DNA of 64,000 nt from Candidatus Sumerlaeaceae bacterium (GCA_049968255.1 JBMFRB010000005.1:101822-165821), one strand, 5' to 3'. Positions 7,079 to 52,633 are shown, numbered from the stretch's first letter. Numbers and translations: made by a program. The notes: a model not told the origin generated them from the sequence alone.

Positions 7079-7696
7079 ATGGTTGATCCGAAGTCGTTTT
7101 TCGAGATGGGTCTCGCTTTTCACGGACACAAATGCCCGGCCATGCCAATGGGTTTGCGGGTCGGGGCAGCGGCGATGAACGCTCTGGGAGTCGAACGCGC
7201 AAAAGATGGCCAGCTCGTCGCTCTCGTTGAGATTGGCGACGATCATTGTGCGACTTGTTTTGCGGATGGCATCCAAGTTATAACGGGCTGCACATTCGGC
7301 AAAGGCAATATCCAGAAGCTTGGCTACGGCAAGTGGGGAGTGACCCTAATTGAAAAGAACACAAGGCGTGCGGTTCGCGTGACGCCAAAGGCTGAAGCAA
7401 TGAAAGCAAACAAACAGACGGCCTTCTTTTCCGAATATCGAGAGAAAGGCATCCCCGCTTCGAAGGTTCCCTCGGAAGTGGTTGACCCGCTCATTGAGCG
7501 AGTTCTCAGTGCTCCTCAAGAAGCTCTCCTCATCGTGAGTCCAGTGTTTGACTATGCGTGGCAAGATCCACCACACTCATTTGAGAGCTTCGTGTGCGAG
7601 GAATGTGGCGAAATGACCGTCGAGCCTTACGGGCGGTTGTTCGGCGAAAAACGAGTATGTATCCCGTGCCGACAGAAAGTGGCCGGTAGGGCGTGA
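7079..7696 (+). CDS. FmdE/FwdE-family metal-binding protein with C-terminal zinc finger
   Basis: FHGHKCP, CFADGIQVITGCTFGKGN, C-terminal CEECGE...CIPC; AGGAG RBS before ATG 7079. Confidence 0.9.
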   Translation: MVDPKSFFEMGLAFHGHKCPAMPMGLRVGAAAMNALGVERAKDGQLVALVEIGDDHCATCFADGIQVITGCTFGKGNIQKLGYGKWGVTLIEKNTRRAVRVTPKAEAMKANKQTAFFSEYREKGIPASKVPSEVVDPLIERVLSAPQEALLIVSPVFDYAWQDPPHSFESFVCEECGEMTVEPYGRLFGEKRVCIPCRQKVAGRA

Positions 7697-7722
7697 GAAC
7701 TCGAGAATAGGGACACCGATCT

Positions 7723-38212: not shown

Positions 38213-41065
38213 TTAGCGCTTTTTCGACGCTTTTTTCGTTGCAGCTTTTTTCGCAGGCGCTGTTTTCGCCACTTTGTTGGCAGCCGACTTCTTCGCCGAC
38301 GCTTTCTTCGAAAAAGACGACGCAGGCTTCGGCGGTGCGCTTTCGATCGCGGCCTGAGCGGCAGCAAGCCGTGCTATCGGCACGCGGAACGGCGAGCAGC
38401 TCACGTAATTCATCCCCACGCGATGGCAGAACTTCACCGATGCCGGATCACCACCATGTTCGCCGCAGATACCAACCTTGAGGTCGGGTCGCGTTTCACG
38501 TCCGCGCTCGATCCCCACTCTAATGAGCTCGCCGATGCCGTCCTGATCAATGGTCTGGAAAGGATCATCCTTGAGGATCTTCTTCTCAAGGTAATCAGGC
38601 AGGAACGAGCCAATGTCGTCGCGGCTGAAGCCAAAGCCCATCTGCGTCAGATCGTTCGTGCCAAACGAGAAGAATTCAGCGACTTGGGCGAGTTTGCCCG
38701 CTTGCAGCGCTGCGCGCGGAATTTCGATCATCGTGCCGTAGAGGAACGGCAGCTTGCGCAGACCGAATTTCTGCATGACCTCTTTGGCCACGCGATCCAC
38801 GATCTCCTTCTGGTGCATGAGCTCCGTCTCGATGCACGTGACCGGGATCATAATTTCTGGCAACGCTTTCTTTCCGGCCTTTATAAGCTCTGCAGCTGCT
38901 TCGAGAATCGCGCGTACCTGCATCTCGGTCACTTCGGGATAAGTGATGCCAAGACGCACGCCACGATGGCCGAGCATGGGGTTGTTCTCGCGCAATGCTT
39001 CGGCCCGCTTCTGCAATTCGGCCATATCGATCCCCAACTCTTTGGCCAGTGTCTGGAGCTTTTCTTCGGAATGTGGCACGAATTCATGCAGTGGGGGATC
39101 GAGCAGACGGATTGTGACCGGCCGGCCATTCATGACTTCGAGAGTCGCCTTCACGTCATTTTTGACGAATGGGAAGAGCTCGTCGAGGGCCTTGCGCCGT
39201 TCGTCGCCGGTTTTGCTCATGATCATCTTGCGCAGCAGGAACAGGGGCTTATCGCTCCCCTCGCCATAGAACATGTGCTCCGTGCGGAAAAGACCGATAC
39301 CTTCGGCGCCGAATTTGATGGCTTGTTCAGCATCCTTGGGAGTGTCGGCATTCGTCCGCACGCGGAGCTGGCGGAACCTATCCGCAAGCTTCATGAGCTC
39401 CTGGAAGGGCTTGTTGTGTTCGAGGTCCACGTCGACAAGAGGTAGTTCACCAAGGTAAACTAACCCTTTCGTGCCGTTGAGCGAAATCCAATCGCCCTCT
39501 TTGACCACAACGCCGCTCTTGGTCTTGAACGACTTAAGATCGTGAGCGATCTCAATATCGCTGCAGCCGACGATGCAGCACTTGCCCCAACCACGCGCCA
39601 CAAGCGCGGCGTGGGAGGTCATGCCGCCTTTGCTGGTGAGGATCGCCTGGGCCTTGTGCATGCCGTCGACGTCCTCGGGCGACGTCTCTTCGCGCACCAG
39701 GATGACCTTTTCGCCTTTCGCGGCCCATTGCACTGCATCCTCGGCGGTGAACACGACACGGCCGCGCGCACCACCAGGACCGGCGGGCAAGCCTTTTGCG
39801 ATCGGCGTCGTTTTGAGTTCCACCTTCGGATCAAGCATGGGCAGGAGAAGCTCGAACAACTGATTCGGCGCCACACGCTGCACAGCGGTCGCATCGTCGA
39901 TCAGTCCCTCTTTGTACATTTCCGTGGCCATGCGGACTGCCGCCACGCCATTGCGCTTACCGACGCGGCACTGCAGGATATAGAGCTTGCCTTTCTCAAT
40001 TGTGAACTCGATGTCCTGCATGTCGCGATAATGCTTCTCGAGCCGATCCTGAATGTCGTAGAGCTCGGCGTAAACTTCGGGCATCAGCTCTTTGAGCGTG
40101 GGCAGGTGCCTACTCTGCTCGTTTTTGGATTCGTCGTTGATCGGAGCAGGGGTGCGAATGCCGGCCACCACGTCCTCACCCTGCGCATTGATGAGGTACT
40201 CGCCGTAGAAAATTTTTTCACCCGTGCCGGGATGCCGCGTGAAGGCTACGCCGGTGGCGCTGTCGTCGCCCATGTTGCCGAAAACCATGGACTGCACATT
40301 GACGGCGGTGCCCCATTCATCGGGGATGCGTTCGATGCGGCGGTACTCAACGGCACGTTTGCCGTTCCAGCTCGCAAACACGGCGCCGATCGCGCCCCAA
40401 AGCTGATCCCATGGATCCTGGGGGAAAGCTTTGCCTAGCACTTCTTTGACCTTCGCCTTGAAGGCTTTGACAAGCTCTTGAAGATCCTCCGCCGTCAGAT
40501 CCGTATCGGAGCTATAGTCCTTCTCCTTTTTCACTTCCTCGAGCATCTCATCGAGGATTTTGCGGATTCCCTTGCCATCCTTAGGCTCTATGCCTGCGGC
40601 CTTCTCCATAACGACGTCGGCATACATCATGATCAGGCGCCGATACGCGTCGTAGGCAAAACGGGGGTTATTTGTTTTCTCGATGAGCCCCTGAATGGTC
40701 TTATCGTTGAGACCGACGTTGAGCACGGTCTCCATCATGCCGGGCATGGACTTGCGCGCGCCCGAGCGCACCGACACGAGCAGTGGATTCGACGGATCGC
40801 CAAACTTCTTTTTGGTCAGTTTTTCGACCTTGGCAAGCGCGGCCTCGACCTGCCCTTTCAGCTCGGGCGGGTATTTGCGCCCATGCTGATAATAGTAGGT
40901 ACAGACTTCTGTGGTGATTGTAAAACCCGGCGGCACTGGCAGCCGCAGGTCGGGATGCCCAGCCATCTCGGCAAGGTTGGCACCTTTGCCGCCGAGAAGC
41001 TCTTTCATTGACTCATTGCCGTCGGCGCGACCGCCGCCGAATGAGTAGACGTACTTCTTTGCCAT
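38213..41065 (-). CDS. ppdK: Pyruvate, phosphate dikinase
   Basis: GGKGANLAEM, SVRSGA, GGMTSHAA, GLFRTEHMF, SFGTNDLTQ, GICGEHGG; AGGAGG RBS. Confidence 0.98.
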   Translation of the reverse strand: MAKKYVYSFGGGRADGNESMKELLGGKGANLAEMAGHPDLRLPVPPGFTITTEVCTYYYQHGRKYPPELKGQVEAALAKVEKLTKKKFGDPSNPLLVSVRSGARKSMPGMMETVLNVGLNDKTIQGLIEKTNNPRFAYDAYRRLIMMYADVVMEKAAGIEPKDGKGIRKILDEMLEEVKKEKDYSSDTDLTAEDLQELVKAFKAKVKEVLGKAFPQDPWDQLWGAIGAVFASWNGKRAVEYRRIERIPDEWGTAVNVQSMVFGNMGDDSATGVAFTRHPGTGEKIFYGEYLINAQGEDVVAGIRTPAPINDESKNEQSRHLPTLKELMPEVYAELYDIQDRLEKHYRDMQDIEFTIEKGKLYILQCRVGKRNGVAAVRMATEMYKEGLIDDATAVQRVAPNQLFELLLPMLDPKVELKTTPIAKGLPAGPGGARGRVVFTAEDAVQWAAKGEKVILVREETSPEDVDGMHKAQAILTSKGGMTSHAALVARGWGKCCIVGCSDIEIAHDLKSFKTKSGVVVKEGDWISLNGTKGLVYLGELPLVDVDLEHNKPFQELMKLADRFRQLRVRTNADTPKDAEQAIKFGAEGIGLFRTEHMFYGEGSDKPLFLLRKMIMSKTGDERRKALDELFPFVKNDVKATLEVMNGRPVTIRLLDPPLHEFVPHSEEKLQTLAKELGIDMAELQKRAEALRENNPMLGHRGVRLGITYPEVTEMQVRAILEAAAELIKAGKKALPEIMIPVTCIETELMHQKEIVDRVAKEVMQKFGLRKLPFLYGTMIEIPRAALQAGKLAQVAEFFSFGTNDLTQMGFGFSRDDIGSFLPDYLEKKILKDDPFQTIDQDGIGELIRVGIERGRETRPDLKVGICGEHGGDPASVKFCHRVGMNYVSCSPFRVPIARLAAAQAAIESAPPKPASSFSKKASAKKSAANKVAKTAPAKKAATKKASKKR

Positions 41066-41363
41066 TTACAACCTCCTTTTAGGTTGGCTGTGGCCCGGGT
41101 GCTTTCCCCACACCGCTCGCCGATCCCGACTCACGATCGTTCACCCAAGCGCACAGCATTTTTTCGTGGTTGCACAGAACTAAACGTTCGCAAACAAGCG
41201 CTATTCAACTTTTGCGCCGGTCAAGCACGCTTTGGGGCTCAAAGTTGCATGTCAAAGGGAAATGCTGGCTTTTGCGTTTTTTTTACAAATACGTGGTCCG
41301 CAGCCCTCGCGCCGCGTGAAAGCTGGCTTGACACGGCTGTGAGAAGCTCGCGACGGTAGAAAT

Positions 41364-42008
41364 ATGAAAACGCGATTTTCTCATCTCATCATTCTGGCAA
41401 TTTGTGCCGCAATGCTCGTAGGCTGTGGCAGCGATAAGGATAAAAAGCGCTCCGAAAAAGAACGATCGGCTCGCGTGGCCGTGCGCGCAGAGGAAGTACG
41501 CAAACGCCTAGACGACCTCCAGCATTCGCTGGTGCAGCTCTACCAAGAGACAGAAATCCAGCAGATGAAAATTCGCGCGGCGCAAGAAAATCTGGCCGCT
41601 TTGCGCAAGAGCCTTGGCGAGCTGGCGCGCAGCGAGCGCGCTTATTTGGAAACATCGGCCACCGGAAGCGCCGCCATCGAAGTGCCTCGGCTAAAGTACA
41701 TGGAGGAGCCGCGGGCACCTGAAACAAACAAGAAAAGAAAAGAGAATCGGGCGCTGGAAACACTTCTGCTCCTGGCCTTTGCAGCATTCCTTGTGACGAT
41801 TGGCTACAAGCTCTATCAAAAGAAATCGCGCTCCGAAGAAGACTCCAGCGCGGGCGATAGCGGCGACTCTTACACCATTATCAAGCCGCCGCCTGCCGAT
41901 CAGATGGGCCAGAGCGAAGCCGCGCAAGCCCCCGAGAAGGTGGAACCGCCGCAGGATGAGCCAAAGGCCGGCGAATCCGATAAGCCAAGCAATGACACGT
42001 CAGCATAA
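41364..42008 (+). CDS. Putative lipoprotein with coiled coil and a second TM helix
   Basis: Lipobox LVGC, heptad region, TM LLLLAFAAFLVTIGY, acidic/Pro-rich tail. Confidence 0.72.
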   Translation: MKTRFSHLIILAICAAMLVGCGSDKDKKRSEKERSARVAVRAEEVRKRLDDLQHSLVQLYQETEIQQMKIRAAQENLAALRKSLGELARSERAYLETSATGSAAIEVPRLKYMEEPRAPETNKKRKENRALETLLLLAFAAFLVTIGYKLYQKKSRSEEDSSAGDSGDSYTIIKPPPADQMGQSEAAQAPEKVEPPQDEPKAGESDKPSNDTSA

Positions 42009-42060
42009 ACAAGTTTATTAACCGCCAAGATATTAAGATAAGGAGCTAGCTCGGTCCCTC

Positions 42061-42975
42061 GTGACGTGCGACCTCACTACAAGCGTCGGTCCTTTGACGC
42101 TCAAAAATCCGGTGACCGTCGCATCCGGCACTTTTGGTTACGGACTTGAATTCGCCGAGTTTTATGATCCGGTGCTGCTGGGTGGCATCTTTCTCAAGGG
42201 GCTGACGCGCGAACCACGTGCCGGTAACGAACTACCCCGCCTCGTCGAAACGCCCAGCGGCCTTATCAACTCGATTGGACTGCAGAACATTGGCATCGAG
42301 GAATTCTGCACCCACAAGTGGAGAGAGCTGGAAGGCATTAACACACTCATCGGAGTGAACATCAGCGGGCGCTCGCCAGAGGAATATGCCGAGCTTACGG
42401 AGCGCGCCTCGCAGGTGCCCATCGTCGGAGCTATCGAAGTAAACGTCTCGTGCCCAAATGTCAAAGAAGGCGGCGTGGAATTCGGCCGCTCCGCCGAGCA
42501 TATTCGCACGATCACGCGTGCCTGCGTGGAGGCCAGCCGCGTGCCGGTTATTGTCAAGCTTTCGCCCAACGTGACCGACCTCGTGCCGCTCGCGGCGGCA
42601 GCCATGGAGTCGGGGGCGACCGCCGTGAGCCTCGTCAACACCTTTTTAGCGATGGCCATTGATGCGCAAACGCGCCGCCCAGTACTACGCAATATCTTCG
42701 GCGGGTTGAGCGGCCCCGCGATCAAGCCCATCGCGCTGCGGATGGTGTGGCAGGTGTGGCGCGAGCTGCGCTGCCCCATCATCGGCATGGGGGGCATCAT
42801 GAGCGGCACCGACGCCGTTGAATTCCTGCTAGCCGGTGCAAGCGCTGTGAGCGTGGGTACGGCCAACTTTGTCAATCCGACAGCGGGACGCGATATTTTG
42901 CGCGAGCTTGAGGACTATTGCGAACGCCACGGCGTCCGCCGTGTGCGCGAGCTTGTCGGCGCTGCTCACGCCTGA
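42061..42975 (+). CDS. pyrD: Dihydroorotate dehydrogenase (family 1B catalytic subunit)
   Basis: ASGTFG, INSIGLQN, NVSCPNV, KLSPNVTD, GGLSGPAIKP, GMGGI. Confidence 0.96.
   Translation: MTCDLTTSVGPLTLKNPVTVASGTFGYGLEFAEFYDPVLLGGIFLKGLTREPRAGNELPRLVETPSGLINSIGLQNIGIEEFCTHKWRELEGINTLIGVNISGRSPEEYAELTERASQVPIVGAIEVNVSCPNVKEGGVEFGRSAEHIRTITRACVEASRVPVIVKLSPNVTDLVPLAAAAMESGATAVSLVNTFLAMAIDAQTRRPVLRNIFGGLSGPAIKPIALRMVWQVWRELRCPIIGMGGIMSGTDAVEFLLAGASAVSVGTANFVNPTAGRDILRELEDYCERHGVRRVRELVGAAHA
42883..42969 (+). repeat. Direct repeat copy 1 (pyrD 3' end)
   Basis: Aligns without gaps to 47053-47139, 68/87 nt by hand count. Confidence 0.92.
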
Positions 42976-42979
42976 AGCA

Positions 42980-43080
42980 GGAAAGACGCGCCAGAGAAGA
43001 GGCCTTCTCGTGCACTCAACGGCAGGTGTGGCCACGACTTGTTCGGGAAAGACCCGCCAGAGAAGCGACGTTCTCCTGCA
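42980..43080 (+). repeat. Two 35-nt hairpin-containing direct repeats separated by 31 nt
   Basis: GGAAAGACGCGCCAGAGAAGAGGCCTTCTCGTGCA (42980-43014) vs GGAAAGACCCGCCAGAGAAGCGACGTTCTCCTGCA (43046-43080), 30/35 identical. Confidence 0.85.
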
Positions 43081-43529
43081 ACCCTCTTCCGGCCGCGCCG
43101 CAACGCTAAACCGCCCCACTTTCGCGACATGTCGTTCCCTAGTGGCCGTTCGTTCCAAAGACTAACAAGGGCAATGGGCGCAGCCGACGCGAACTCTGCC
43201 TCACAAAGTGCATGGAAGGTCAGTCATTCGTACTCAGCGCTAACCTCCCGCCATGATACGGCGCTCAGAAGCGTGAGCGCTGCGACCGAGAGGAATTTGT
43301 CCTCACAAGCCACAAATCCACGCCGCAGGAATGCTCCAGGCATCGCGCTGCTACCCTCCCGCTGCCCGAGCCAAGTCCAAAAACAGACAGCGGCGGCTGA
43401 AGGCCAATCCTTGAGCCGCTGCACACAAAAAACTTTCAAAAAAACATTACACCGCGAATAAGTGTTTTTTTTTTTCAATATTCCACAATGGCACATGCCA
43501 ACATATTTTTCTGCAAAAGGAGAAGAACG

Positions 43530-43745
43530 ATGAATCGCTTCACGCTTTTGCCACTCGTGGCTCTCATTTCTCTTGCTCCGGTGCTCGGCTGGTCAGACAC
43601 TCCGCAGTGCTCATGGTCAGCCGACAGAAGGCAGTGCCTCGTAGAGCTTGCAACATGCGAGCCTCCTCTGGCGAGCTGCGGAGGGCAGGGTTTCTGGCAG
43701 AGTGGCCCATGGGCGGGCGACGCAATATGTCACTGCCACGAGTAG
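43530..43745 (+). CDS. Small secreted six-cysteine peptide (71 aa precursor)
   Basis: AAGGAG RBS, signal peptide MNRFTLLPLVALISLAPVLGWS, mature region C-x8-C-x6-C-x6-C-x16-C-x-C. Confidence 0.75.
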   Translation: MNRFTLLPLVALISLAPVLGWSDTPQCSWSADRRQCLVELATCEPPLASCGGQGFWQSGPWAGDAICHCHE

Positions 43746-43755
43746 AGAGTTGAGC

Positions 43756-44724
43756 ATGGAAACAAGGCATCACCTCTTCGTTTTTACATGGGGTCTAGTG
43801 TTTCTATGGTTGGGCGCCGAGGGCATCGGCGCCCAGTCCACCTTGCCGAAAGGCCCTGTTCACCTTGTCCCCGAGCAACTGTCGCTCTGGAAAAATCACA
43901 ATGTTTATTGCCGAAGCCGGTGCGTTGTTGATGATATCCAAGCCAAAACCCAGCATCATTACACTGTCACATCATACCACTTTGGCACTCATGACCTCAT
44001 TATTCATGCAAAAAGCAACCATGCCGAAATCGTTGGATATTGGAATTTTGCACTTAGTACCGCCGACTACTGGATGAGGGGATGCGACCCCTATATCGTT
44101 TTCTTCCCTAAAAGCGGTTTCGAACTCCGTTTCGGTTCACTTGATCCATATTTCAATATATTTGAGAGCGCACGCTGCATTTTCTATGGCTGTGGATTCG
44201 AACACCTCAGCGTGCAATCGGAATTGAATCTTACGACTGTAACACTTTCAGTGTACAGCTCAGACCTCCTAGCCACAAGTACAATATATCATGTCTTCCG
44301 AGACAACCTTGTTGTAGCAAGATTCAAAATAGGAGAAATGGCTGCGCGATATGATAAGAACGGTCGTCTTAATCGCACTGCGGGCCCTCCTTCCTATACC
44401 TTTTACGAAACCTTCGACGACTACCAAACTTCCCATCCATTCTCATTTCCCACTCGGGTAATTTTTCAAGATCAGCCAAGCAATCCCAAGTACTACAAGT
44501 TTGTTCACCAAATTCTTGAAGCAGGACCAATAGACGTCAGTCTGAAGCCGCTCCTTTCTGCTCTTACTAAAAGTCTCCCGCACCGTATTTGTGCCCGTCC
44601 CCACCCCGTACCTATCAGTAGGCTTTTCCGCTCTCGCACATTGCTAGCACAAGCAACTTTCATTCTCATCATTCTGGTCTTAAGTGGGATTTTCTTCCTC
44701 CGAAAGGGAAAGAACCGCTCATAG
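43756..44724 (+). CDS. Hypothetical exported protein with C-terminal TM anchor
   Basis: Signal peptide METRHHLFVFTWGLVFLWLGAEGIGA; beta-rich body; TM then RKGKNRS. Confidence 0.7.
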   Translation: METRHHLFVFTWGLVFLWLGAEGIGAQSTLPKGPVHLVPEQLSLWKNHNVYCRSRCVVDDIQAKTQHHYTVTSYHFGTHDLIIHAKSNHAEIVGYWNFALSTADYWMRGCDPYIVFFPKSGFELRFGSLDPYFNIFESARCIFYGCGFEHLSVQSELNLTTVTLSVYSSDLLATSTIYHVFRDNLVVARFKIGEMAARYDKNGRLNRTAGPPSYTFYETFDDYQTSHPFSFPTRVIFQDQPSNPKYYKFVHQILEAGPIDVSLKPLLSALTKSLPHRICARPHPVPISRLFRSRTLLAQATFILIILVLSGIFFLRKGKNRS

Positions 44725-44787
44725 GGTTGTTTCGCTATTCGGAGTCTATATTTAAGTAAACGTCGGATCTGACAAGAGTGATTTGCT

Positions 44788-47151
44788 ATGAGCAGGCCTA
44801 GCATACATCATTTCGGCGAAACGCGCTTTCCCATTGCCCCTTTATTTGTCACCTTGTGTTCTCTCTTGGTTTGGGCGTTACCCTCACTTTCACTCAGTGG
44901 TTTTTTTGGTAGGTTCTTTTTCTATATGGTACATGGGGGTGCACCTATCGCCTCTGAGCTTGGTGTTCGCCCGTGGATTCTGCTGGTATTTGGTACAATC
45001 GTAGGAATACTGGCTTTCTCCTTGTCTCGAAGGATTGTATGGGTGGGATTTCTGCTGCTAAGTGCTTTCAGCGTCGCACAAGCATCTGTGCTAGACTTTC
45101 CGTGGCCCAAACGTGAGGAAGGAGTTATCTTTTTTGTCGCGCATACGGCTATGTGGCTTTTGCTGCCTTGCATTGTTTGGGCTTACGCAAATACACCTCG
45201 TGTGCGACACTTAATCCGCATAAGCTTTATTCCTCTTGGCGTAATCAATTATTTAACATTCGTTTTATGGTTGTCAAAGTCTAGTGTAGGAATAACTCTT
45301 GCCCCCTACGCTCCCTATGTGATGGACAGCTCAGGCATAAATGAAAATGCTTCGCGCTTCAGCGGAACCCTAAACTCGCCGAATGCGTTGGCTCTACTTG
45401 CCATAGTTACGTGGCCGGCGTTTTTGTCACCGATCCGTGCAGAGTGGTGCCGGTTCTATGCTTCGCTGTTACGAATCATTTCATTGGCCCTTATCTATGT
45501 TATGGTGTTTTTCACATATTCTCGCGCTGCGTATTTGGGCTTGATTGTGCAATTCTGTTTTCTCGCGCCGATAGTTTTTGCCCAAAGCCAAGGCTCGTCA
45601 AAACGAGCTGCAGATCATGCGTTCCTCGCCCTAGGCCTTGCTTGCGTTATAGCTGTTTTAGTGAATTCTGTTCGTCAGCGGGTGATTTCTGCGTTTAGCG
45701 GAGGGACTGATGCATCGATTCTTAATCGTTTGGAAGTTTATTCCGTGGCGTTACGACTTTTATGGGAGCGCCCATTTTGCGGCTGGGGCCCGGGCTCGTT
45801 TGCGCATTTATACAATGTGTTCTATCGCATCCCTGGGGTGAATTATGCTTTCCACGATGTTCACAGTGCATTCTTTTCACGTTTTCTCGACATTGGTTTT
45901 GCGGGTATTTGCCTCGAAGTGATACTACTTCTGGGGCTGTCACCTTTTAAAAATGTCAAGCGGGTTCCTTTGTGGGTTCGGCTGAGTTTCGTCGGAGCAA
46001 TAGTGCCCTCGATTGCAGAAAACGCTTCCCGAGTCACGTTTGCAGTAGACATAGCATGGATATGGATAGCTGCCGTCGTCGTCATATACACGCGAGGAGC
46101 CAACGCTCGGAGTAATAAATGTGATAGCGACAGAACAAGAAGTTTATTATTTACCTGTGCATGTTCCGGACTGTGGCTCATGAATTTCGTGGTTGAGCCC
46201 AAAAACGCGTGCGACCGACTAAACGCTGAATTGAACCGGCTTTGTTCATCACTTGTCGGCAAGACGACCGCCTCTGTGTATATCTCTGATGTCGGAACTG
46301 TTTGGCGCTCGAAGGAGGAGAGAGAGTTTCCAAGTGTTATAGCCTCTATGCTGCTCTTGTCCGAAGCCTCCGTTGCGAAGCCGGAAACGATGATAGACCT
46401 GGTCGATTTCCGCCCTGTACCAGCCATGGAGCGAAACGTTCCCATAATCCTGAAAGCGCCGGAGGCCGCGGCCTATCTGTTGTACGCCTCTGACCCGCTC
46501 GCTGCCCAACGATTAGTTGATCTTTTGCCAGCAGACCTTTTGAGAGAGGTGGCTCGACGAGATTTTAGGTGCGAACCGTTTCATGCGGTGGCTGCTGAGA
46601 ATTTTTGTCCGACGTGCGCTCTGTACGAAATCCCGCGACAACGGGAATTCGTTGGTCGTGGTCTACGCACCTACGCAACCACCGCCACTATCTCGCAGGT
46701 TGCGAATGCTTTTGCCAAAATTCTGGAAACGACGACCTCAGCTGTGGTTCCAATCCGGACTGCGCTGGCTGACTCCCGTGATGAGTGGGGGATGCTTCGT
46801 CATTTAGGGGGCGTAGGTTCTGTCTGGGGCCTCAGTTTTTACTCTGGGCCAAAACGCGAGGAAATAGTGGCCATTCCGCTAACTGGCGGTGGACAGCTTG
46901 TTCTGGCGATGGAGTATGAAGCGAGGCAGAGCATTCCGGCACGTGTCGATTCGGCTGCGAATAAAGTTTTTGCACTTACCGCCTGGCGATGTTGGTGTGT
47001 GCTCCAGGCCGAAGGAGAAGAAACGTTTGTGTCCCTGGCCAAACGCAACCCTGCGGGGTGCGATATCCTGCGCGAGCTTCAGGACTACTGTACGCGCCAC
47101 GGCGTGCGCCATGTGCACGAACTTATCGGTGCCGCACAGCCGCCATGGTAG
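44788..47151 (+). CDS. O-antigen ligase/O-OTase (Wzy_C) family protein fused to degenerate class A beta-lactamase-like domain; C-terminus derived from pyrD
   Basis: RFSGTLNSPNALA, FTYSRAAYLG, RLEVY...ERPFCGWGPGSF, HDVHS; many TMs; soluble C-terminal domain. Confidence 0.8.
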   Translation: MSRPSIHHFGETRFPIAPLFVTLCSLLVWALPSLSLSGFFGRFFFYMVHGGAPIASELGVRPWILLVFGTIVGILAFSLSRRIVWVGFLLLSAFSVAQASVLDFPWPKREEGVIFFVAHTAMWLLLPCIVWAYANTPRVRHLIRISFIPLGVINYLTFVLWLSKSSVGITLAPYAPYVMDSSGINENASRFSGTLNSPNALALLAIVTWPAFLSPIRAEWCRFYASLLRIISLALIYVMVFFTYSRAAYLGLIVQFCFLAPIVFAQSQGSSKRAADHAFLALGLACVIAVLVNSVRQRVISAFSGGTDASILNRLEVYSVALRLLWERPFCGWGPGSFAHLYNVFYRIPGVNYAFHDVHSAFFSRFLDIGFAGICLEVILLLGLSPFKNVKRVPLWVRLSFVGAIVPSIAENASRVTFAVDIAWIWIAAVVVIYTRGANARSNKCDSDRTRSLLFTCACSGLWLMNFVVEPKNACDRLNAELNRLCSSLVGKTTASVYISDVGTVWRSKEEREFPSVIASMLLLSEASVAKPETMIDLVDFRPVPAMERNVPIILKAPEAAAYLLYASDPLAAQRLVDLLPADLLREVARRDFRCEPFHAVAAENFCPTCALYEIPRQREFVGRGLRTYATTATISQVANAFAKILETTTSAVVPIRTALADSRDEWGMLRHLGGVGSVWGLSFYSGPKREEIVAIPLTGGGQLVLAMEYEARQSIPARVDSAANKVFALTAWRCWCVLQAEGEETFVSLAKRNPAGCDILRELQDYCTRHGVRHVHELIGAAQPPW
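47053..47139 (+). repeat. Direct repeat copy 2 (displaced pyrD 3' fragment)
   Basis: Encodes AGCDILRELQDYCTRHGVRHVHELIGAAQ vs PyrD AGRDILRELEDYCERHGVRRVRELVGAAH. Confidence 0.92.
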
Positions 47152-47507
47152 CCCACCGCAAAGCGACCCATTACATCAATGGCTCGGGCCGATCGTAGCC
47201 CGCGCCAAAGTGTGGGATCGGAAGTCCTCCCTATGATTAGCAAGGCCCCCGTTCGGATATGCAGCGATGCTGCAGCGCACGACTGTCGGAAGCTTTGTTG
47301 ATGAGCTCACCCAACTGGCAACTGTCCCCTCCACGGCCGCCGGCGGTTCATGCAAGCTCCCCGTCGTCGCCGGCTCACTTGCGCACTCCGCTAACTCACT
47401 CGCGTAGAAATCCTAACGACCGCCAAGTGACGCCAAAATGATCACGCGCACCAGAAAGTAGAATTCTTCTGTGGTCCCAGAGAGGCTTTGATTGTACTGC
47501 TGGCAGA

Positions 47508-48482
47508 TCAGTGTTCTGTGGTGATGACTTCGAGCGGCGGTGGGCCCACATAGAGATTCACGCGCAGCTCGATGGGGTCGCGATAGCGCCGAACCGTAAA
47601 GATCCCGATGTCCTTCGGGCCAGTGTTGATATTTTCGCCAATACTCACCCGGTACGTATCACCCTCGTGGGCTGGAATGGCAAAGCGTGCGGCGACGGGC
47701 TCGTCCTCCGCGCCGGAGGGCAACGTTAGCGACTCCCTTACGACTGCCTCAAGCGGCGTGAGTGTCACTGGCACATTGATCATCCGGCGAAAGGGCAATT
47801 CATACACGGACACTTCCGCACGCACGACAGGGACGACGGGAAGAAAAAGTGCGCTGGTGGTTTTCGCGTCGCCCACACGCAGGCGAAACCGCCGCTCCGG
47901 GGGATTGCTTGGCCATAAGCGCACCTCCTCGCCAGATAGGGGCTGGTAGTTGGCGAAAATCTCAAGCTCGACTTCGTCAAGTTTTCCCTTGGCTGGAGCG
48001 AGCAAAATGCGCGTGAACCCTCCGCCATTGGTCACAAAGGGACCGCCAACTGTGCTGCCACCATAGCCGTAGATGGCAAAGTCGCTCACGGGCTGCAAAT
48101 TGACGCGATCGAACACGAAGACGCATAAACTGGGAGAAGACGCGGAGGCCGGAGGGAGAGCACTCTTCTCGAACGTAGAAATAATATCCTGCGGAGAGCT
48201 GGTGAGTTCCGGGAGCCATCGCGATCTCGCGGGCTGCCGCGCCACGGTACCCGAAGCGAGGGCGGCTGTCGTGGTCATGGTCGGAGCGCTCTGAGTGTAA
48301 AGCGAGGCTGAAGTGGATGGCGGCTCCACTCGCTTAGCGGCTGGCGATGTCACCGCTGTGGCCGCATCAACATAGACGGCGCGCTGCAGAGTGCTTGTCG
48401 TCAGAGCCGCAGCATGGGGAGCGAAGAACGTTAGTGCGCCCACCACACTCAGCACAATGAACGAATTAATGATCTGCTGCAT
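47508..48482 (-). CDS. Secreted hypothetical protein with S/T/A/P-rich linker and beta-sandwich-like C-terminal region
   Basis: Signal peptide ...VVGALTFFAPHAAA; low-complexity linker; start uncertain (48482 or 48518). Confidence 0.65.
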   Translation of the reverse strand: MQQIINSFIVLSVVGALTFFAPHAAALTTSTLQRAVYVDAATAVTSPAAKRVEPPSTSASLYTQSAPTMTTTAALASGTVARQPARSRWLPELTSSPQDIISTFEKSALPPASASSPSLCVFVFDRVNLQPVSDFAIYGYGGSTVGGPFVTNGGGFTRILLAPAKGKLDEVELEIFANYQPLSGEEVRLWPSNPPERRFRLRVGDAKTTSALFLPVVPVVRAEVSVYELPFRRMINVPVTLTPLEAVVRESLTLPSGAEDEPVAARFAIPAHEGDTYRVSIGENINTGPKDIGIFTVRRYRDPIELRVNLYVGPPPLEVITTEH

Positions 48483-49133
48483 GTTCGAGTCCTCCCATTG
48501 GACGGTCTTCAGCGACACAATATCGATAATTTCTTATCTTTCTATTATAATGTTAAGCCGTGCAAACTATTATGTTATTCGTTTCAAGCCTCTCAGGTTA
48601 TCGTTTTTGCTCAATGATACATCGATCTTAATGCCGCCCCTTTGTGGACAAGGCTCGATGCCCACATCTCTTCACATTTTTTCCGTAATCGAGGTCGCAA
48701 ACTCCGAGTGCATCCGTGCGATAAATTGTCATCGCTGTATTGCCCGGATGCCTGGCCTTTTGCGTCGAGTGGGCTTTGCGGCTTCTGGGGTGCGCCACGA
48801 GAAACCGCCGTTTTGCAGACACTGAATTGCATTGCCCGACTGTGGCCTACTTGGCAAAGCTCAGAAACAACTTTACCAGCAACGCAAGGCTTGGTCTGGC
48901 TGCGGGCCTTGCAGGGGCTTATCCAAGACTACGACTCCGTTTGTCCTAAGCTTAGGATATCGCCTAGCTTTCGCCACCTCGGGAAAGTTTGTGGCCGCGA
49001 ATACCACAGACGCGAGAAGAATGGTAGGGCTGCTTTTTTCTTCATACATGTGGAACTCAGCTAGGCAAACACAATGTGTCGTCATCCTGCGCAACGCCGT
49101 ATTGTTTTGTAGCCTAACTTCTCGTCAACTGGC

Positions 49134-49244: not shown

Positions 49245-52200
49245 TTAGTAAGCAGCCCATTCGGTCACACCCGCTGGGAAAGGCTCGGCAACCGCAATGT
49301 CCGAAGCCCCACTGTAAATGACGGTGGCAACAGCGCCCTTTGAGCTCAGACGCAGCACACCGAAGCTCGGGTGCTCCGGATTGCTGATGGACTGCACCAG
49401 CTGGTGCAGGTTATATGTCGGCGCGTTTGGTGTGGCTAGCGTCACCCACGACGTGGGGTTCGTTGGATCACGCGCCACGAGCACTGATTTCTGGCCAAGT
49501 GGGTCAACACCAGCGAATCCGCCCACGTCGGCCACAAGAGTCCAGTCGCCGCTCGGACCCACATCGATACCATCGCCGAGAGCCAGGTGATACGCTCCAG
49601 CCGGATCAACCTTGTTCACGTTGTCCATCGAGTTTGTGTTTCCATTCGCGGCAAGGTTGAATGGCCATCCGCCCGGATCTCCGGGGGCGAAGCTCACCGC
49701 AATCGTCCCACCAGCACCGAGTGCTGCGGAAGTGCTCACCGTCAACATTCTACGCAGCCCCGACGCGGGGTCCACCAGCGGGAAGTCCACGCTGGCAAGA
49801 GCCGCCGTCCCGCGCCAACGCTTGAAGGTGCCTTGAACGAGGGCGATTTCACCGCTTGGGTAGGAGAGAGTTCCCACGTTTGAAGTGTCCATTCCAAGAG
49901 TGAGAGTTCCAGCTCCGCCATTCATCACGAGACGCCCTCTCTTCAGGCTCAGCACCTTGGTGCAGCGGTAATCGCCTGGCAGATTCACACTTCCGTTTGT
50001 CGCGCAGACAATTCCGCCAACATCACCCGGCACGAGAGCACCCGCCGCCTGTCCACTGACATCGCCACAGAATCCCCAGACGCCAACACCCTGGAGCGGT
50101 ACATTACTAAAGGCACCACTGAGGGTCACGCCAGGGAAGTCGCTGGACTGCGGCGGCATGTTGGCAAAGCCAGAGGGGCTATCGGTGGCAAATCCACCGT
50201 TTGCACCCCACGTCACACTGCCGAGACCATTGACCACTCCGCCGCTGCGTGGTGCGAGAGTTCCCTTGATCGTGAGTGTGTTGTTGCAGGTCAGTGTCCC
50301 GAAAATGTGGGCGATTTTACCCGTAGCATCTCCGCCAAGCGTGACCGGATCGTTGCAGGTAAGAGTGACGCCGGAAGGCACCACGAGGTCGCCCGAGATC
50401 GTGATATTCGCGGGCCAAGTCATCGAGTTTGAGATGATGAGTGGTGTAGCGTTGAAGTCACTAGCGGTCGTGTTGTTATTGACCACACTGCCCGCGAGGA
50501 TGACTGGTCCTGTCATCGACGGCTTAAAGGTGGCTGTTGCCCCTATTGTCAGGGTATTCGCGATGGTAGCGGGTAGACCGCCCGACGCGGTATAATTCGC
50601 GCCGTTGAGAATAAGATTACCGAAGCTACGGCCCGAGAATGGGATCGCTGTAGATGTTGCCAAAAATTCCACGGTCGATCCCGGATCAAAAGACCATGCA
50701 CCATAGCTCACCGGAATGTATCCGCTTGGCAAGGCCCCTGGGAAAGGCGTGGCGACACTGCGGCTCGTGTTGAACTGGAGATATCCACCATTTTCGACTT
50801 TGCCCGTCGCGGTGGGATCGAAGTAGTAGATGCTAGTTGAGCCGCCCAGCGTGCCAGGCGCAAATTCGAAACGGCCACCGTTGCGCACATTTACGTCCGG
50901 CGTGGCGGGGTTCAAGTCGCCACCAATGTTGAGAATTTCATTGATGGTCGTCGTCTCGATGCGAAGAGTGATCACGTTGCTTGCGCTTAGAGGATCACCG
51001 ATCGTCAGGGTGCGGCAATTTGCTTCGGCAGTGGAAGAGCTAATCTTAACCGTGTAGGCACTTGTGACATTGGTGTGGTCCAGCACGACATCATCGAGTG
51101 GCGTCGGCACACCGGCGGGTGACCAGTTCCCCGGATCGAACCAGTCGCTGGCATTTAGGCCAGCGCCCAACCACTGCTTCACCGTCCCGGTCGCTGGCGG
51201 GGTGATGGCCCACGAACCAATATAGTTGTTGGTGACCAAGGCAAAGATGTTCGTGCCATCAGTAGCAAAGTCGCCTGTCCCATTTGCGTTAGCATTAGGG
51301 GTTGCGAGTGCGGGACCAAAATCCACCAACTGACCCTGAGCAGGTCCGCTCGTGACATCGGTCACCGAGAAACGCGCGTATGCGTTCGTTGATGCTTTGG
51401 GCAGGCCATGGTGAATGGCGCAATAGTATGTTTTGCCGCCGATCGCCAGTGGCACACCGTGCAGAGCACTCGAGTGCACTCCTGTGATCATGGACTGGAA
51501 CGCCCCAGAATTCGTGTAAACCGCGAGAGCCCCATTCGTTTGATGCCAAATCGCACCCGTCACGGGATCCACATATTCGCCGCGCAACGCGTTTCCGAAA
51601 CCATAGTCCGAAGGCAGCCCCGTCAACGTGATCTCTGAGACGGAAGCCACATTCGTGTTGCTCGTCGGTGGAACTTGGGGGTCTGTGTAGGCGAACTTGT
51701 AGACGGAGTTGAGGATGTTGGCTCGCGCCACACCAACATAGAACTCGACATTAGATCCGCTGACAAGCCGCGCCCAGAATGTGTCACCCACACGCTGCGA
51801 GTAAGCAACGAAGGCTTGAGGGAGCGTTGGGCCCACTGGCGTTGCCTCCGCAGTAGCTGCGTCCGCAGCGCGGTTTGCATAGATAACCTCCGGAGCCCCG
51901 AGGGTATCTTCGCTCGCGCCGGCGGCACCAAACCACCGATAAATCTTGAAAGTTTCGGTCTTGCTGTTGATGGAGAGATTGCACGCATAAACAGCGTAGC
52001 CTGCTGCTCCAAAGTCCACAACCCGAACTTTCACTAGAGGCCGTGTGCCACCTGTAACACCCGTGATATTCATATTACCCACTGTGGCGCCGTCCGCGGC
52101 CTTGAGGACCACAATCCCTGGCGCGCTGGTTGATGAACGCACGACAAGCAAGTGGCCAGTACTGGGGTTGTAGGCCAACCCACGCGTCTCGTTGTCATTT

Positions 52201-52316
52201 TGTATGGGCGCGTTGGGAGCGTCAATGCGCCAGTTCTGCGTTAGCGCGCCAAAAGCGCTCAGCGTACCCGCGAGTGTGAGCCATGCCACTAAGCATGGCA
52301 GTATTCGGTGTCTCAT
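49245..52316 (-). CDS. Large secreted protein: DUF4623-like N-terminal region plus beta-helix/adhesin-like region
   Basis: AAGGAGG RBS, signal peptide; RGLAYN..FKIYRW..RVGD; DWFDPGNWSPAGVP motif; G/T/N-rich beta repeats. Confidence 0.75.
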   Translation of the reverse strand: MRHRILPCLVAWLTLAGTLSAFGALTQNWRIDAPNAPIQNDNETRGLAYNPSTGHLLVVRSSTSAPGIVVLKAADGATVGNMNITGVTGGTRPLVKVRVVDFGAAGYAVYACNLSINSKTETFKIYRWFGAAGASEDTLGAPEVIYANRAADAATAEATPVGPTLPQAFVAYSQRVGDTFWARLVSGSNVEFYVGVARANILNSVYKFAYTDPQVPPTSNTNVASVSEITLTGLPSDYGFGNALRGEYVDPVTGAIWHQTNGALAVYTNSGAFQSMITGVHSSALHGVPLAIGGKTYYCAIHHGLPKASTNAYARFSVTDVTSGPAQGQLVDFGPALATPNANANGTGDFATDGTNIFALVTNNYIGSWAITPPATGTVKQWLGAGLNASDWFDPGNWSPAGVPTPLDDVVLDHTNVTSAYTVKISSSTAEANCRTLTIGDPLSASNVITLRIETTTINEILNIGGDLNPATPDVNVRNGGRFEFAPGTLGGSTSIYYFDPTATGKVENGGYLQFNTSRSVATPFPGALPSGYIPVSYGAWSFDPGSTVEFLATSTAIPFSGRSFGNLILNGANYTASGGLPATIANTLTIGATATFKPSMTGPVILAGSVVNNNTTASDFNATPLIISNSMTWPANITISGDLVVPSGVTLTCNDPVTLGGDATGKIAHIFGTLTCNNTLTIKGTLAPRSGGVVNGLGSVTWGANGGFATDSPSGFANMPPQSSDFPGVTLSGAFSNVPLQGVGVWGFCGDVSGQAAGALVPGDVGGIVCATNGSVNLPGDYRCTKVLSLKRGRLVMNGGAGTLTLGMDTSNVGTLSYPSGEIALVQGTFKRWRGTAALASVDFPLVDPASGLRRMLTVSTSAALGAGGTIAVSFAPGDPGGWPFNLAANGNTNSMDNVNKVDPAGAYHLALGDGIDVGPSGDWTLVADVGGFAGVDPLGQKSVLVARDPTNPTSWVTLATPNAPTYNLHQLVQSISNPEHPSFGVLRLSSKGAVATVIYSGASDIAVAEPFPAGVTEWAAY

Positions 52317-52633
52317 GAGTAAACCCTCCTTGTGTCTCTGATTTTGTGGGAAGTGAAGGTTTTCGTGGTTCTTCTCCTCCACTCACCATGTTTTTTTGCC
52401 AAGCTTTAGTTATGGTTGTCAAGAGACTTCTGCAAAAAAAAACAACAAAAGTGGACCATTTGGTCCGATTTGTCGGACCACGCAGCTGTGCCCAGCATTA
52501 TTGAAGAGTGCATTTCTGGCAGCTGAGAGCAGGACCTTATCTGCCACAGCCACAGCAGCGCTGCGAGCCTTCTTTCATGGAGGGGTTCAGGCGAACACGG
52601 AGCAGCGCTAAGTTGCTGCGAGGGCCCATTGCT

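Follow-up and report, generated by a model that had tools for sequence, protein, structure and literature searches.

A recurrent Sumerlaeaceae envelope module with a Wzy_C protein bearing a PBP-like domain, an anchored protein of predicted LolA fold and a six-cysteine peptide

Wzy_C enzymes complete lipopolysaccharide (LPS), polymerise glycans and carry out bacterial O-glycosylation, and they are tools for bioconjugate vaccines. Most of the characterised Wzy_C proteins (WaaL, Wzy) use lipid-linked acceptors, and all characterised members known to us draw their glycan from an undecaprenyl-diphosphate carrier; sequence alone, to our knowledge, does not yet reveal which acceptor an enzyme uses. 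In glycocins the sugar is attached inside the cytoplasm by soluble, nucleotide-sugar-dependent GT2 enzymes. Proteins of the LolA fold bind lipids, and the LolA/LolB superfamily includes the mycobacterial glycolipid carriers LprG and LppX. According to a study of PglL enzymes, two arginines and one histidine of the Wzy_C motif are functional residues common to WaaL and PglL, the PglL_A motif (PF15864) separates PglL O-oligosaccharyltransferases (O-OTases) from WaaL, and 21 of 31 pglL homologues adjoin a pilin gene (PMC3643930).

The window analysed here, a stretch of 64,000 nucleotides, comes from an uncultured hot-spring bacterium of Candidatus Sumerlaeota (family Sumerlaeaceae). We know of no cultured representative of this phylum. 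A sequence-only reading of the window had pointed to three closely spaced, co-directional genes, and all three ORFs were found as described. They form a genuine operon encoding a six-Cys peptide (71 aa), an anchored protein (322 aa) and a Wzy_C protein (787 aa), a module that recurs in related bacteria without a described function. The features of the locus, positions counted from the first nucleotide of the window, are as follows.

42061-42975, + strand: pyrD (dihydroorotate dehydrogenase; Pfam DHO_dh, E 1e-75)
42976-43529, + strand: non-coding islet leader with a 48-nt imperfect direct repeat, an AT-rich stretch and the sequence AAGGAG
43530-43745, + strand: six-Cys pre-peptide, Sec-type, 71 aa (translation, hydrophobicity, framework homologues)
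43756-44724, + strand: exported anchored protein, 322 aa; predicted LolA/LolB-like beta-barrel at about aa 30-280, C-terminal helix and basic tail
44788-47151, + strand: islet enzyme ORF, 787 aa (Pfam Wzy_C)
44788-46122, + strand: polytopic Wzy_C domain (WaaL/Wzy/PglL superfamily; Pfam match at nt 45481-45909)
46123-47043, + strand: membrane helix, then a predicted periplasmic pseudoenzyme domain of class-A beta-lactamase/PBP-A fold (AF2, Foldseek, motifs)
47053-47151, + strand: displaced 3' end of the native pyrD, in frame with the enzyme as its last ~28 codons (repeat, alignment)

The islet lies in an AT-richer block, as had been claimed, with a GC content of 0.44-0.48 at 44000-45999 against 0.55-0.64 in the flanks. 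The reported absence of LPS or exopolysaccharide genes nearby also held: no polysaccharide locus was found within ~20 kb (22 flanking ORFs scanned), and the sole sugar-related match among these ORFs was an NTP_transferase (36988-37998). The two copies of the imperfect repeat in the leader occupy 42967-43014 and 43033-43080, and an Rfam search of 42976-43529 gave no match at E ≤ 1. Comparison with a ~95%-identical natural variant indicated purifying selection on all three genes, the listed differences being synonymous in 4/4 cases for the peptide, 3/4 for the anchored protein and 15/19 for the enzyme. That the three genes form a functional unit is supported.

The Wzy_C HMM search proposed as a check in the sequence-only reading (PF04932) matched aa 232-374 of the enzyme with an E-value of 1.2e-14 (54.8 bits against a cut-off of 31.7), and five orthologues likewise exceed the cut-off. 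The protein is polytopic, with at least 11 strongly hydrophobic segments, and the motifs quoted for it (RxxGxxxxPN, TxSR, GWGPGSF and HxxH) are all present in the translation. A 73-aa loop (aa 293-365) contains invariant D308, S310, N313, R314, R328-P-F, G332/G334/G336, D357, H359 and S360. Across six orthologues of 23-25% identity, R246, R298, R314, R328 and H359 are invariant, in line with the Arg and His conservation expected of the large periplasmic loop; their putative counterparts in WaaL are R215, R288 and H338. Wzy_C_2 had no match at the islet locus, and a profile of the enzyme reached no WaaL chain in the PDB. The genome encodes 11 Wzy_C paralogues, among which the islet enzyme alone has the C-terminal domain described below and these neighbours, the six-Cys peptide included.

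The C-terminal domain (~300 residues) was modelled by AF2 with a pLDDT of 90.4, and Foldseek gave matches of E 6e-10 to 6e-9, probability 1.0 and TM 0.55-0.71, with TM 0.57-0.71 for BEL-1, PER-2, PBP-A and CTX-M. It is predicted to be periplasmic because the loop before the last helix carries five Lys/Arg residues. Like class A beta-lactamases and PBP-A (Beta-lactamase2), it has the fold and a nucleophile-type serine in the equivalent position: in a profile alignment to PSE-4, this Ser pairs with S70. The residue pairing with K73, however, is an Ala. The domain has S516-x-x-A519 (S-V-I-A) in place of SxxK, S-D-P in place of SDN and Y-S-G in place of KTG, a C607-x-x-C610 loop occupies the place of the omega loop, and R690-E-E is conserved; unlike those enzymes, it is fused to a membrane glycosyltransferase. 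The domain is a pseudoenzyme: the catalytic Lys73, SDN and KTG are gone, a conserved CxxC loop has been acquired, and the combination of a confident PBP fold with dead catalytic motifs is typical of a binding module. Two distant Wzy_C fusions (P0017, P0018) have a Beta-lactamase2 Pfam match and keep SxxK, SDN and KSG, and the stand-alone relatives P0027 and P0028 have SxxK, SDN and KTG intact. The PBP domain of the distant fusions, apparently still active, hints that the ancestral connection was with peptidoglycan and not with protein glycosylation.

The second gene had been described as encoding an exported protein with a C-terminal transmembrane segment, in agreement with the hydrophobic segments found at aa 7-25 and 290-308, the latter followed by a basic tail. 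Pfam and NCBIfam models, LolA-type models included, gave no match at E ≤ 0.1. The AF2 model was of moderate confidence (pLDDT 62); its top Foldseek matches were of the LolA superfamily (E 1.3e-6, probability 1.0, TMt 0.53-0.57), and in a VIA-align comparison with 48,161 chains the top 12 were all LolA/LolB (Z 9.6-12.5). The nearest named Atlas clusters, TP_0789-like and MucB_RseB (0.84-0.85), serve as a lead only. The protein is thus predicted to be a membrane-tethered periplasmic protein of LolA/LolB fold. It shares with LolA/LolB carriers a predicted unclosed antiparallel beta-barrel and a gene adjoining that of an envelope-biogenesis membrane protein. It differs from them in being tethered by a C-terminal transmembrane helix, known carriers being soluble or lipoproteins, and in having no sequence-family match, the fold assignment coming from the model of pLDDT 62. 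As modelled, the fold would suit a partner that handles lipids no less than a passive acceptor. L-(T/S)-K-G, the best-conserved Ser/Thr motif, also occurs in paralogues without an enzyme gene beside them and has disappeared from one enzyme-bearing lineage (G009); it therefore does not mark a sequon.

The claimed Sec-type 71-aa peptide has an N-terminal hydrophobic segment at aa 4-22 and six Cys in its mature part (~49 aa, net charge -4), with Cys gaps of 8, 6, 6, 16 and 1, a CxC at the end and presumably three disulfides. The Shine-Dalgarno sequence AAGGAG lies 8 nt ahead of its ATG. Only 26 of the 23,620 ORFs of 40-130 aa in the whole genome fit a loose version of the six-Cys framework, and the islet peptide is one of just three that also have a signal-like N-terminus. 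The gene neighbourhood search for small Cys-rich ORFs, another suggested check, found an ORF with a signal peptide and six Cys in matching spacing directly upstream of the gene pair in three of six lineages, including two other genera (G004, G006). The arrangement is beyond chance because the framework is rare genome-wide and recurs upstream of the orthologous pair in these two genera. The peptides of the three genera are 24-29% identical, with framework and position kept. No peptide was found in the fetched loci of G011, G012 and G009 or by HMM searches, no homologue appeared by sequence search outside the three genera, and no similarity was detected in the PDB or Atlas; the Atlas model was poor (pLDDT 0.42).

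In all six lineages that hold the enzyme (G000/G002, where G000 is the window genome, G012, G011, G004, G006 and G009), the genes for the anchored protein and the long Wzy_C enzyme lie side by side in one direction, either overlapping or with little space between them. The module occurs in 7 of 13 Sumerlaeaceae genomes and in none of 62 other genomes of the phylum. Its surroundings differ by lineage and are mostly housekeeping genes, not polysaccharide clusters; both this setting and the peptides in three of the six lineages support the sequence-only reading. A quick tree places the peptide-bearing lineages as three of the four context-known lineages inside a well-supported core clade. The islet thus appears to be a self-contained, horizontally mobile envelope module that, among the genomes searched, is confined to Sumerlaeaceae.

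The function we favour, tentatively, is that of a periplasmic Wzy_C transferase putting an undecaprenyl-linked glycan on an exported partner encoded in the module. On the periplasmic side of the inner membrane, the enzyme would draw the glycan from an undecaprenyl-diphosphate carrier and pass it en bloc to an exported partner that is dedicated to it and encoded alongside. The always-present anchored protein would be the likeliest acceptor and the six-Cys peptide an additional client that can be dispensed with; three of six lineages keep the pair but lack the peptide, which is therefore not the sole acceptor. The dead PBP-like domain, lying over the active site, may act as an acceptor-binding platform. 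Both neighbours of the enzyme carry Sec-type N-termini. The sequence-only reading had likened the enzyme to oligosaccharyltransferases encoded beside their acceptors, and this stands in part: adjacency in 6/6 lineages, the housekeeping loci and the invariant loop residues speak for it, whereas PglL_A is absent and the neighbours are not pilins. PglL_A gave no match at E ≤ 0.1 on the islet enzyme or in the whole genome, and PilO likewise lacks the PglL_A and Wzy_C_2 motifs (PMC3643930). Neither neighbour is a pilin, has a low-complexity Ser/Thr/Ala/Pro stretch or matches Pfam at E ≤ 0.1.

PglL, PilO (TfpO), PglS and TfpM share with the islet enzyme a polytopic Wzy_C design, a position outside polysaccharide loci, adjacent co-directional genes for exported proteins and conserved Arg/His in a periplasmic loop (PMC3643930, PMC9829042). 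By analogy, the placement of the module resembles that of O-OTases encoded beside acceptors in the first of these accounts (PMC3643930). The module differs from them in the missing PglL_A, in having a six-Cys Sec peptide and a predicted LolA-fold protein as neighbours rather than type IV pilins, and in the extra ~300-aa pseudo-PBP domain, of which no description was found in the literature searched.

Nearly as likely as glycan transfer to an exported partner, though in itself somewhat unlikely, is an envelope glycoconjugate ligase with a LolA-like carrier, in which the Wzy_C protein would either polymerise an undecaprenyl-diphosphate-linked glycan or join it to an acceptor, be this a lipid or peptidoglycan. 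The LolA-fold protein would then accommodate the acyl or prenyl part of the substrate or product, the PBP-like domain would dock on the stem peptides of peptidoglycan, and the six-Cys peptide would be an accessory factor and not a substrate. The obligatory partner has a predicted LolA/LolB fold, which would fit a carrier role better than an acceptor role, and a ligase accords with the survival of the pair where the peptide is missing, with the catalytic motifs kept in P0017 and P0018, and with the lipid-linked acceptors of most characterised Wzy_C proteins. The islet enzyme also shares its Pfam family and polytopic design with WaaL and Wzy, and LpxC and WaaA are present in the organism, which therefore makes lipid A. 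However, the enzyme lies outside any LPS or O-antigen locus: glycan-synthesis and LPS core genes are absent beside the module in the window, and none recur across the six lineages. It is also far from the curated RfaL model (NCBIfam), which it does not match and for which one orthologue (G012) scored 29.6 bits against a cut-off of 277. The PBP motifs, moreover, are dead in its own subfamily, and a ligase gives no role to a peptide whose framework and position are kept across three genera.

A more specific form of glycan transfer, which we regard as unlikely, is that a small disulfide-rich peptide is here glycosylated outside the cytoplasm, which would make the module the first system of this kind. 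The dead PBP domain and its CxxC loop would capture the Sec-exported three-disulfide peptide, the Wzy_C protein would decorate it en bloc as an O-oligosaccharyltransferase from an undecaprenyl-linked glycan, and the tethered LolA-fold protein would assist by holding the lipid-linked donor or handing the product on. As in the glycocins sublancin and glycocin F, a small, putatively disulfide-bonded secreted peptide is encoded beside a glycosyltransferase gene, but the candidate enzyme here is a periplasm-facing Wzy_C protein of GT-C type.

It is quite unlikely that the peptide is a Sec-dependent disulfide-rich bacteriocin, an antimicrobial with a defensin framework and perhaps with lipid-linked cell-wall precursors as its target, which the two membrane proteins protect or process and whose immunity genes persist as orphans in peptide-less lineages. 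The patchy distribution of the module, its very recent exchange between congeners and the decayed second enzyme copy adjoining it in the congener G002 are in keeping with this. So is the fit of two of the three peptides to the bacterial CS-alpha-beta defensin expression, CX(2,18)CX(3)CX(2,12)CX(4,17)CXC plus a signal peptide, given in PMC11561630. These two have the C-x3-C and C-terminal C-x-C, and all share a signal peptide and six Cys with the cis-defensins xanthusin and actifensin of that account (PMC11561630). The window peptide fails the expression, with six residues and not three between Cys2 and Cys3. The G-x-C before the fourth Cys, present in all bacterial defensins reported in the same study, is missing (preceding residues A-S, R-W and Q-R), the Cys4-Cys5 loop is long (12-16 residues), and Sumerlaeota lies outside the three phyla reported there (PMC11561630). 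Mature net charges are -4, +2 and 0, and the peptides are therefore not consistently cationic. The lack of PDB or Atlas similarity also speaks against a defensin, and the sole peptide variant seen, with synonymous differences alone, does not suggest an arms race. Invariant Wzy_C catalytic residues, moreover, would serve no evident purpose in an immunity protein. We know of no link between defensins and a Wzy_C enzyme. The arrangement with the decayed copy in G002 resembles, by analogy, what PMC5361080 outlines for effector-immunity modules, which are displaced through homology-facilitated illegitimate recombination.

That the small ORF is there by chance, beside a unit of two large genes, is disfavoured and exceedingly improbable: the confinement of its homologues to three genera and its poor model would suit such a frame, but it has a canonical ribosome-binding site and a signal-peptide-like N-terminus, a Cys framework and position shared by three genera, a combination of framework and signal-like start found in just 3/23,620 small ORFs, and only synonymous natural differences (4/4).

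The module is a compact, conserved case of an enzyme with its own PBP-derived periplasmic domain, putatively for binding, and two candidate partners, and acceptor choice should therefore be directly testable in a laboratory host. It adds a domain architecture apparently not reported before, in which Wzy_C is joined to a PBP-like domain in catalytically intact and dead forms, a putative family of membrane-tethered LolA-fold proteins and a new family of secreted six-Cys peptides.

The islet is a very recent horizontal arrival from a congener by pyrD-anchored recombination. Compared with G002, the window shows 20-28 mismatches per 100 bp up to 42785 and only two from there to 47062, so that a near-identical islet sits in a backbone of only ~76-81% identity, and the final 190 bp of pyrD (42786-42975) arrived with it. 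A direct repeat (42883-42968 and 47053-47138) is 79% identical, the enzyme tail and the pyrD C-terminus are 77% identical at the protein level, and a three-way alignment placed ~10-13 nt of microhomology at the right joint, about 47050-47062. The islet entered through a left crossover inside pyrD and a right microhomology joint, an event that duplicated the 3' end of pyrD and joined it in frame to the enzyme. The 787-aa ORF as enzyme throughout was accordingly rejected, its last ~28 residues being the pyrD remnant. The recent insertion and this pyrD tail, like the C-terminal domain and the LolA fold, had escaped the sequence-only reading. The footprint is a clean natural case of one-sided homologous plus illegitimate recombination yielding an in-frame gene fusion, and a contig of run X3 spans the joint (47037-47250) without any difference.

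The three genes of the islet lie in a genome of 3.1 Mb that is 96% complete, and all were found as open reading frames at the following positions.

43530-43745: peptide ORF (71 aa), co-directional with the other two
43756-44724: anchored-protein ORF (322 aa), beginning 10 nt past the peptide stop
44788-47151: Wzy_C enzyme ORF (787 aa), co-directional with the other two

A canonical AAGGAG stands 8 nt ahead of the peptide ATG. The peptide has a single hydrophobic segment, at its N-terminus, and six Cys in the mature part (gaps 8,6,6,16,1), and the 322-aa protein has hydrophobic segments at both termini with a basic tail after the C-terminal one. For the 787-aa protein, which contains at least 11 strongly hydrophobic segments, the Pfam Wzy_C score over aa 232-374 exceeds the curated cut-off (E 1.2e-14). 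GC content falls to 0.44-0.48 inside the islet, compared with 0.55-0.64 outside, and the 22 flanking ORFs (~20 kb on each side) include no member of an LPS/EPS pathway except one NTP_transferase, 5.5 kb upstream. The ORFs, the Wzy_C match, the GC drop and the scan of flanking genes thus confirm the observation made in the sequence-only reading, i.e. a Sec-type six-Cys peptide, an exported protein with a C-terminal transmembrane segment and a Wzy_C enzyme encoded together in an AT-richer block, with LPS/EPS genes absent nearby. A search of Rfam with 42500-48000 (E<=1) gave zero matches, and promoter-like and terminator-like matches showed no excess over the shuffled expectation.

In the enzyme, a 73-aa loop (aa 293-365) carries the invariant residues D308, S310, N313, R314, R328-P-F, G332/G334/G336, D357, H359 and S360, and R246, after the helix preceding this loop, is invariant too. 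According to PMC3643930, WaaL and PglL share three functionally important residues of the Wzy_C motif (two Arg, one His), and PilO is another enzyme without the PglL motifs. Judged by its conservation as a whole, the catalytic loop of the enzyme is intact. Neither PglL_A nor Wzy_C_2 gave a match on the enzyme. Lacking the motif that marks PglL, and differing from WaaL both by the curated model and by its locus, the enzyme is filed under neither; by sequence it is a member of the Wzy_C superfamily. In its working, the enzyme would come closest to O-OTases whose genes adjoin those of their acceptors. Eleven Wzy_C-matching ORFs are present in the 3.1 Mb of the window's genome; ten pass the Pfam cut-off, and several of the eleven are unusually long (open frames 655-1057 aa), so further C-terminal extensions may exist.

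The last ~300 residues of the enzyme, preceded by a Lys/Arg-rich loop and one more helix, must be periplasmic according to the predicted topology. This C-domain was modelled with a pLDDT of 90.4 from a 26-row alignment, made up of 6 genome-derived rows and 20 of the 34 family matches (those omitted either repeated a genome row or were too short or weak). In Foldseek, the top structural matches were class A β-lactamases and PBP-A, with E values from 6e-10 upwards and TM 0.55-0.71, and the sequence profile reaches PSE-4 (E 8e-4), with an invariant Ser pairing with Ser70 and an invariant Ala with Lys73. The SDN position is occupied by S-D-P and the KTG position by Y-S-G, and a conserved CxxC is found in a low-confidence loop (domain residues 149-178) that corresponds, by the succession of helices and strands, to the omega loop. 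The family comprises 34 matches (E<=0.001) among 1.84 billion representatives, 21 of them with Wzy_C (20 of the 33 scanned and the window's own protein), the other 13 being 9 short fragments, 3 stand-alone β-lactamase-family proteins and 1 likely spurious match. Within the phylum, 7 of 13 Sumerlaeaceae genomes carry the domain and none of the 62 others does, and a word-indexed homologue search with it returned nothing besides the protein itself. Three distant metagenomic fusions of Wzy_C (P0017, P0018 and P0025) match Pfam Beta-lactamase2, and SxxK, SDN and KSG are kept in P0017 and P0018; the window's subfamily is therefore regarded as a degenerate offshoot of a Wzy_C-PBP fusion. With a lipid-linked-glycan transferase and an apparently active PBP-type domain on the same chain, P0017 and P0018 are formally reminiscent of the pairs of cell-wall glycan polymerase and transpeptidase.

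The model of the anchored protein, based on 5 rows, was of moderate quality (pLDDT 62). Foldseek placed the LolA superfamily at the top (E 1.3e-6), and the 12 best matches of VIA-align against 48,161 chains were all LolA or LolB (Z 9.6-12.5, 145-210 residues aligned), i.e. two independent aligners concur on this moderate model that the predicted fold is that of LolA. The nearest named clusters in the Atlas were TP_0789-like/MucB_RseB, which is a lead only, and the nearest unnamed ones (0.93-0.94) belong to Planctomycetota and Verrucomicrobiota; the family of tethered LolA-like proteins may therefore extend beyond the module. Solo paralogues without an adjacent Wzy_C gene were seen in G006, G012, G066 and G009 (loci L055 4738-5925, L056 5864-6787, L057 6100-7035 and L058 200-1165). 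The conserved L-(T/S)-K-G of the anchored protein was considered as a sequon and rejected; the solo paralogues have the same motif, which is thus not diagnostic.

When 41 related genomes were searched with the enzyme, full-length relatives (25-29% identity) came up in the Sumerlaeaceae genomes G012, G011, G004 and G006, and G009 yielded a more distant relative. In all five, the same-strand gene directly upstream of the enzyme encodes a protein of 299-353 aa that starts like a signal peptide and has a helix and a basic tail at its C-terminus, and four of these proteins are recognisable homologues of the window's 322-aa protein (17-23% identity). The surroundings of the pair differ from genome to genome and are as follows.

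G012: mscL
G011: sulfatase
G004: PMT_2 protein and succinyl-CoA ligase
G006: flavoprotein
G009: DNA polymerase III delta'

The MscL homologue adjoining the module in G012 (L036 5124-5546) has a C-terminal extension with CxxC...CxxC that is zinc-ribbon-like. Directly upstream of the pair in G004 and G006 lies a small ORF whose product begins like a signal peptide and contains six Cys (gaps 8,3,7,16,1 and 12,3,6,12,1, respectively), with 24 and 29% identity to the window's peptide. In G012, G011 and G009, neither ORF listing nor a frame-independent framework scan nor three-frame reading detected a six-Cys ORF near the pair, and an HMM built from the three peptides and applied to 75 genomes of the phylum gave no peptide match there; three-frame reading and the framework scan of the fetched loci detected no decayed peptide gene upstream of these pairs either. 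Of the 23,620 small ORFs in the window's genome, 26 fit the loose six-Cys framework, and 3 of these have a signal-like start as well. Among the 11 Wzy_C paralogues this enzyme alone has a six-Cys neighbour, and the genome contains one copy each of the C-domain, the anchored protein and the peptide. When metagenomes were scanned with the enzyme alignment, one locus proved relevant (L060, from the same organism as G006), the other two matches covering the Wzy_C core only. Distant paralogues with both Wzy_C and the C-domain (G004 C28 and C35; G006 at 3.26 Mb) have no peptide or anchored-protein neighbours.

In a quick maximum-likelihood tree of 23 rows (9 from genomes and 14 full-length proteins from metagenomes, fragments excluded), the enzymes of the window's genome, G004, G006 and G011+G012 formed one clade with 100% SH-aLRT and unresolved internal order, and that of G009 fell outside this core clade, among paralogues. 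Of the 4 core-clade lineages with genomic context, 3 therefore have the peptide, and the simplest history would be an ancestral three-gene unit with one loss.

Searches with the peptide in Pfam, NCBIfam, PADLOC, PDB sequences and the Atlas yielded nothing usable. The regular expression with which bacterial CS-αβ defensins were mined in PMC11561630 fits two of the three peptides. The G-x-C ahead of Cys4, which that paper describes as present in all of its bacterial defensins, is absent in all three. The Cys2-Cys3 spacing of the window's peptide is six residues instead of three, and the net charges of the three peptides are -4, +2 and 0. Together, these features led us to call the peptides 'defensin-framework-like' and not to file them as defensins. 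Complex prediction of the peptide with the C-domain and the LolA-like domain scored 0.00 without controls, and carries no weight either way.

The sequence-only reading proposed that the enzyme places a lipid-linked glycan on the disulfide peptide or the anchored protein, and we tentatively retain a dedicated protein or peptide O-glycosylation system, with the roles of partner, client and platform changed. The donor would be an undecaprenyl-diphosphate-linked glycan handled at the periplasmic face, as suggested by the Wzy_C family. The anchored protein rather than the peptide would be the constant partner, the peptide would be a second and dispensable client, and the dead PBP domain may be a platform for acceptor binding. 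Nearly as likely is that the enzyme is instead a ligase of glycolipids or cell-wall glycoconjugates, served by the LolA-fold protein as a carrier of lipid, a reading favoured by the predicted fold of the anchored protein, by the intact PBP motifs of the distant relatives and by the retention of the pair in lineages without the peptide. The host encodes LpxC and WaaA, so lipid-A-based acceptors exist. That the islet specifies a Sec-dependent, disulfide-rich bacteriocin together with self-protection genes is improbable, and some quite different function takes up the probability left over. The parts of the module are of known kinds; glycosylation is a proposed function. In the literature searched, we found no description of Wzy_C fused to a β-lactamase-fold domain, of a constant LolA-fold partner for an O-antigen-ligase-type enzyme or of this six-Cys peptide. 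We know of no cultures from the host phylum; the module is compact enough for direct testing.

Comparison with G002, a congener that belongs to a different species and carries a near-identical islet, indicates that the islet is a very recent import. The backbones are ~81% identical at 39060-41831 and ~76% in pyrD up to 42785, whereas 42786-47062 differs by two mismatches only, besides a ~100-bp tandem duplication in G002. The imported stretch includes the last 190 bp of pyrD (42786-42975). The direction of transfer was evidently from a G002-like donor to the window's lineage, because the window carries a truncated subset. A direct repeat (42883-42968 and 47053-47138, 79% identical) is the duplicated pyrD 3' end, and the last ~28 residues of the 787-aa ORF have 77% identity to the pyrD C-terminus. 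The final codons of this ORF are, by this comparison, not the enzyme's own; the G002 enzyme has 773 aa, with residues 1-759 identical to the window's and then 14 further codons of its own. At the right joint, the two genomes diverge after the common ...GCGGGGTGCG, which is also the beginning of the pyrD remnant. The footprint thus combines a left crossover within pyrD, a right joint at 10-13-nt microhomology and a second copy of the final ~95 bp of pyrD in the recipient's version, 79% identical to the incoming copy and so diverged as much as the backbone. The recipient's own pyrD 3' end (47053-47151) was pushed aside and now continues the enzyme gene in frame. Such a footprint, homologous on one side and illegitimate on the other, is the product expected of homology-facilitated illegitimate recombination of a linear fragment, as defined in PMC3240628. 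An integrase-type island was considered and rejected, the 4.2 kb being without a recombinase and the joints fitting linear-fragment recombination.

Directly past the pyrD stop, in the imported leader, lies a 48-nt imperfect direct repeat (42967-43014 and 43033-43080, 77% identical) without an Rfam match. Two secreted-looking proteins encoded at 47508-48518 (-; 336 aa) and 49245-52382 (-; 1045 aa) have no Pfam match, and the gene of the former is syntenic in G002 with 68% nucleotide identity. Past the G002 enzyme there are ~4 kb with a decayed second enzyme gene, and then a homologue of the window's next gene. This second Wzy_C/C-domain gene (L035, G002:C15:6000-25000, locus coordinates ~6870-8590) is 22-26% identical with 3-5 in-frame stops, and the tandem duplication in G002 is located at the end of the anchored-protein gene; the decayed copy and the duplication suggest turnover of modules at the pyrD-downstream site.

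Contigs from public sequencing runs, compared over 41800-48700 of the window, show the islet and its joints independently; a search for sequencing runs listed no RNA run. One contig of run X3 spans the window-type joint (47037-47250) with zero differences. In run X2, one contig ends at 47062 with the G002-type continuation and another covers the window-type left crossover region (42605-42845) without differences, and this run may hold either both strains together or an intermediate with the full island. Run X4 contains a third variant of the islet, ~95% identical, in which 4/4 listed differences in the peptide gene, 3/4 in the anchored-protein gene and 15/19 in the enzyme gene are synonymous; these counts come from single low-depth contigs, and sequencing errors would not favour synonymous sites. 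The operon is conserved, mobile and under purifying selection.
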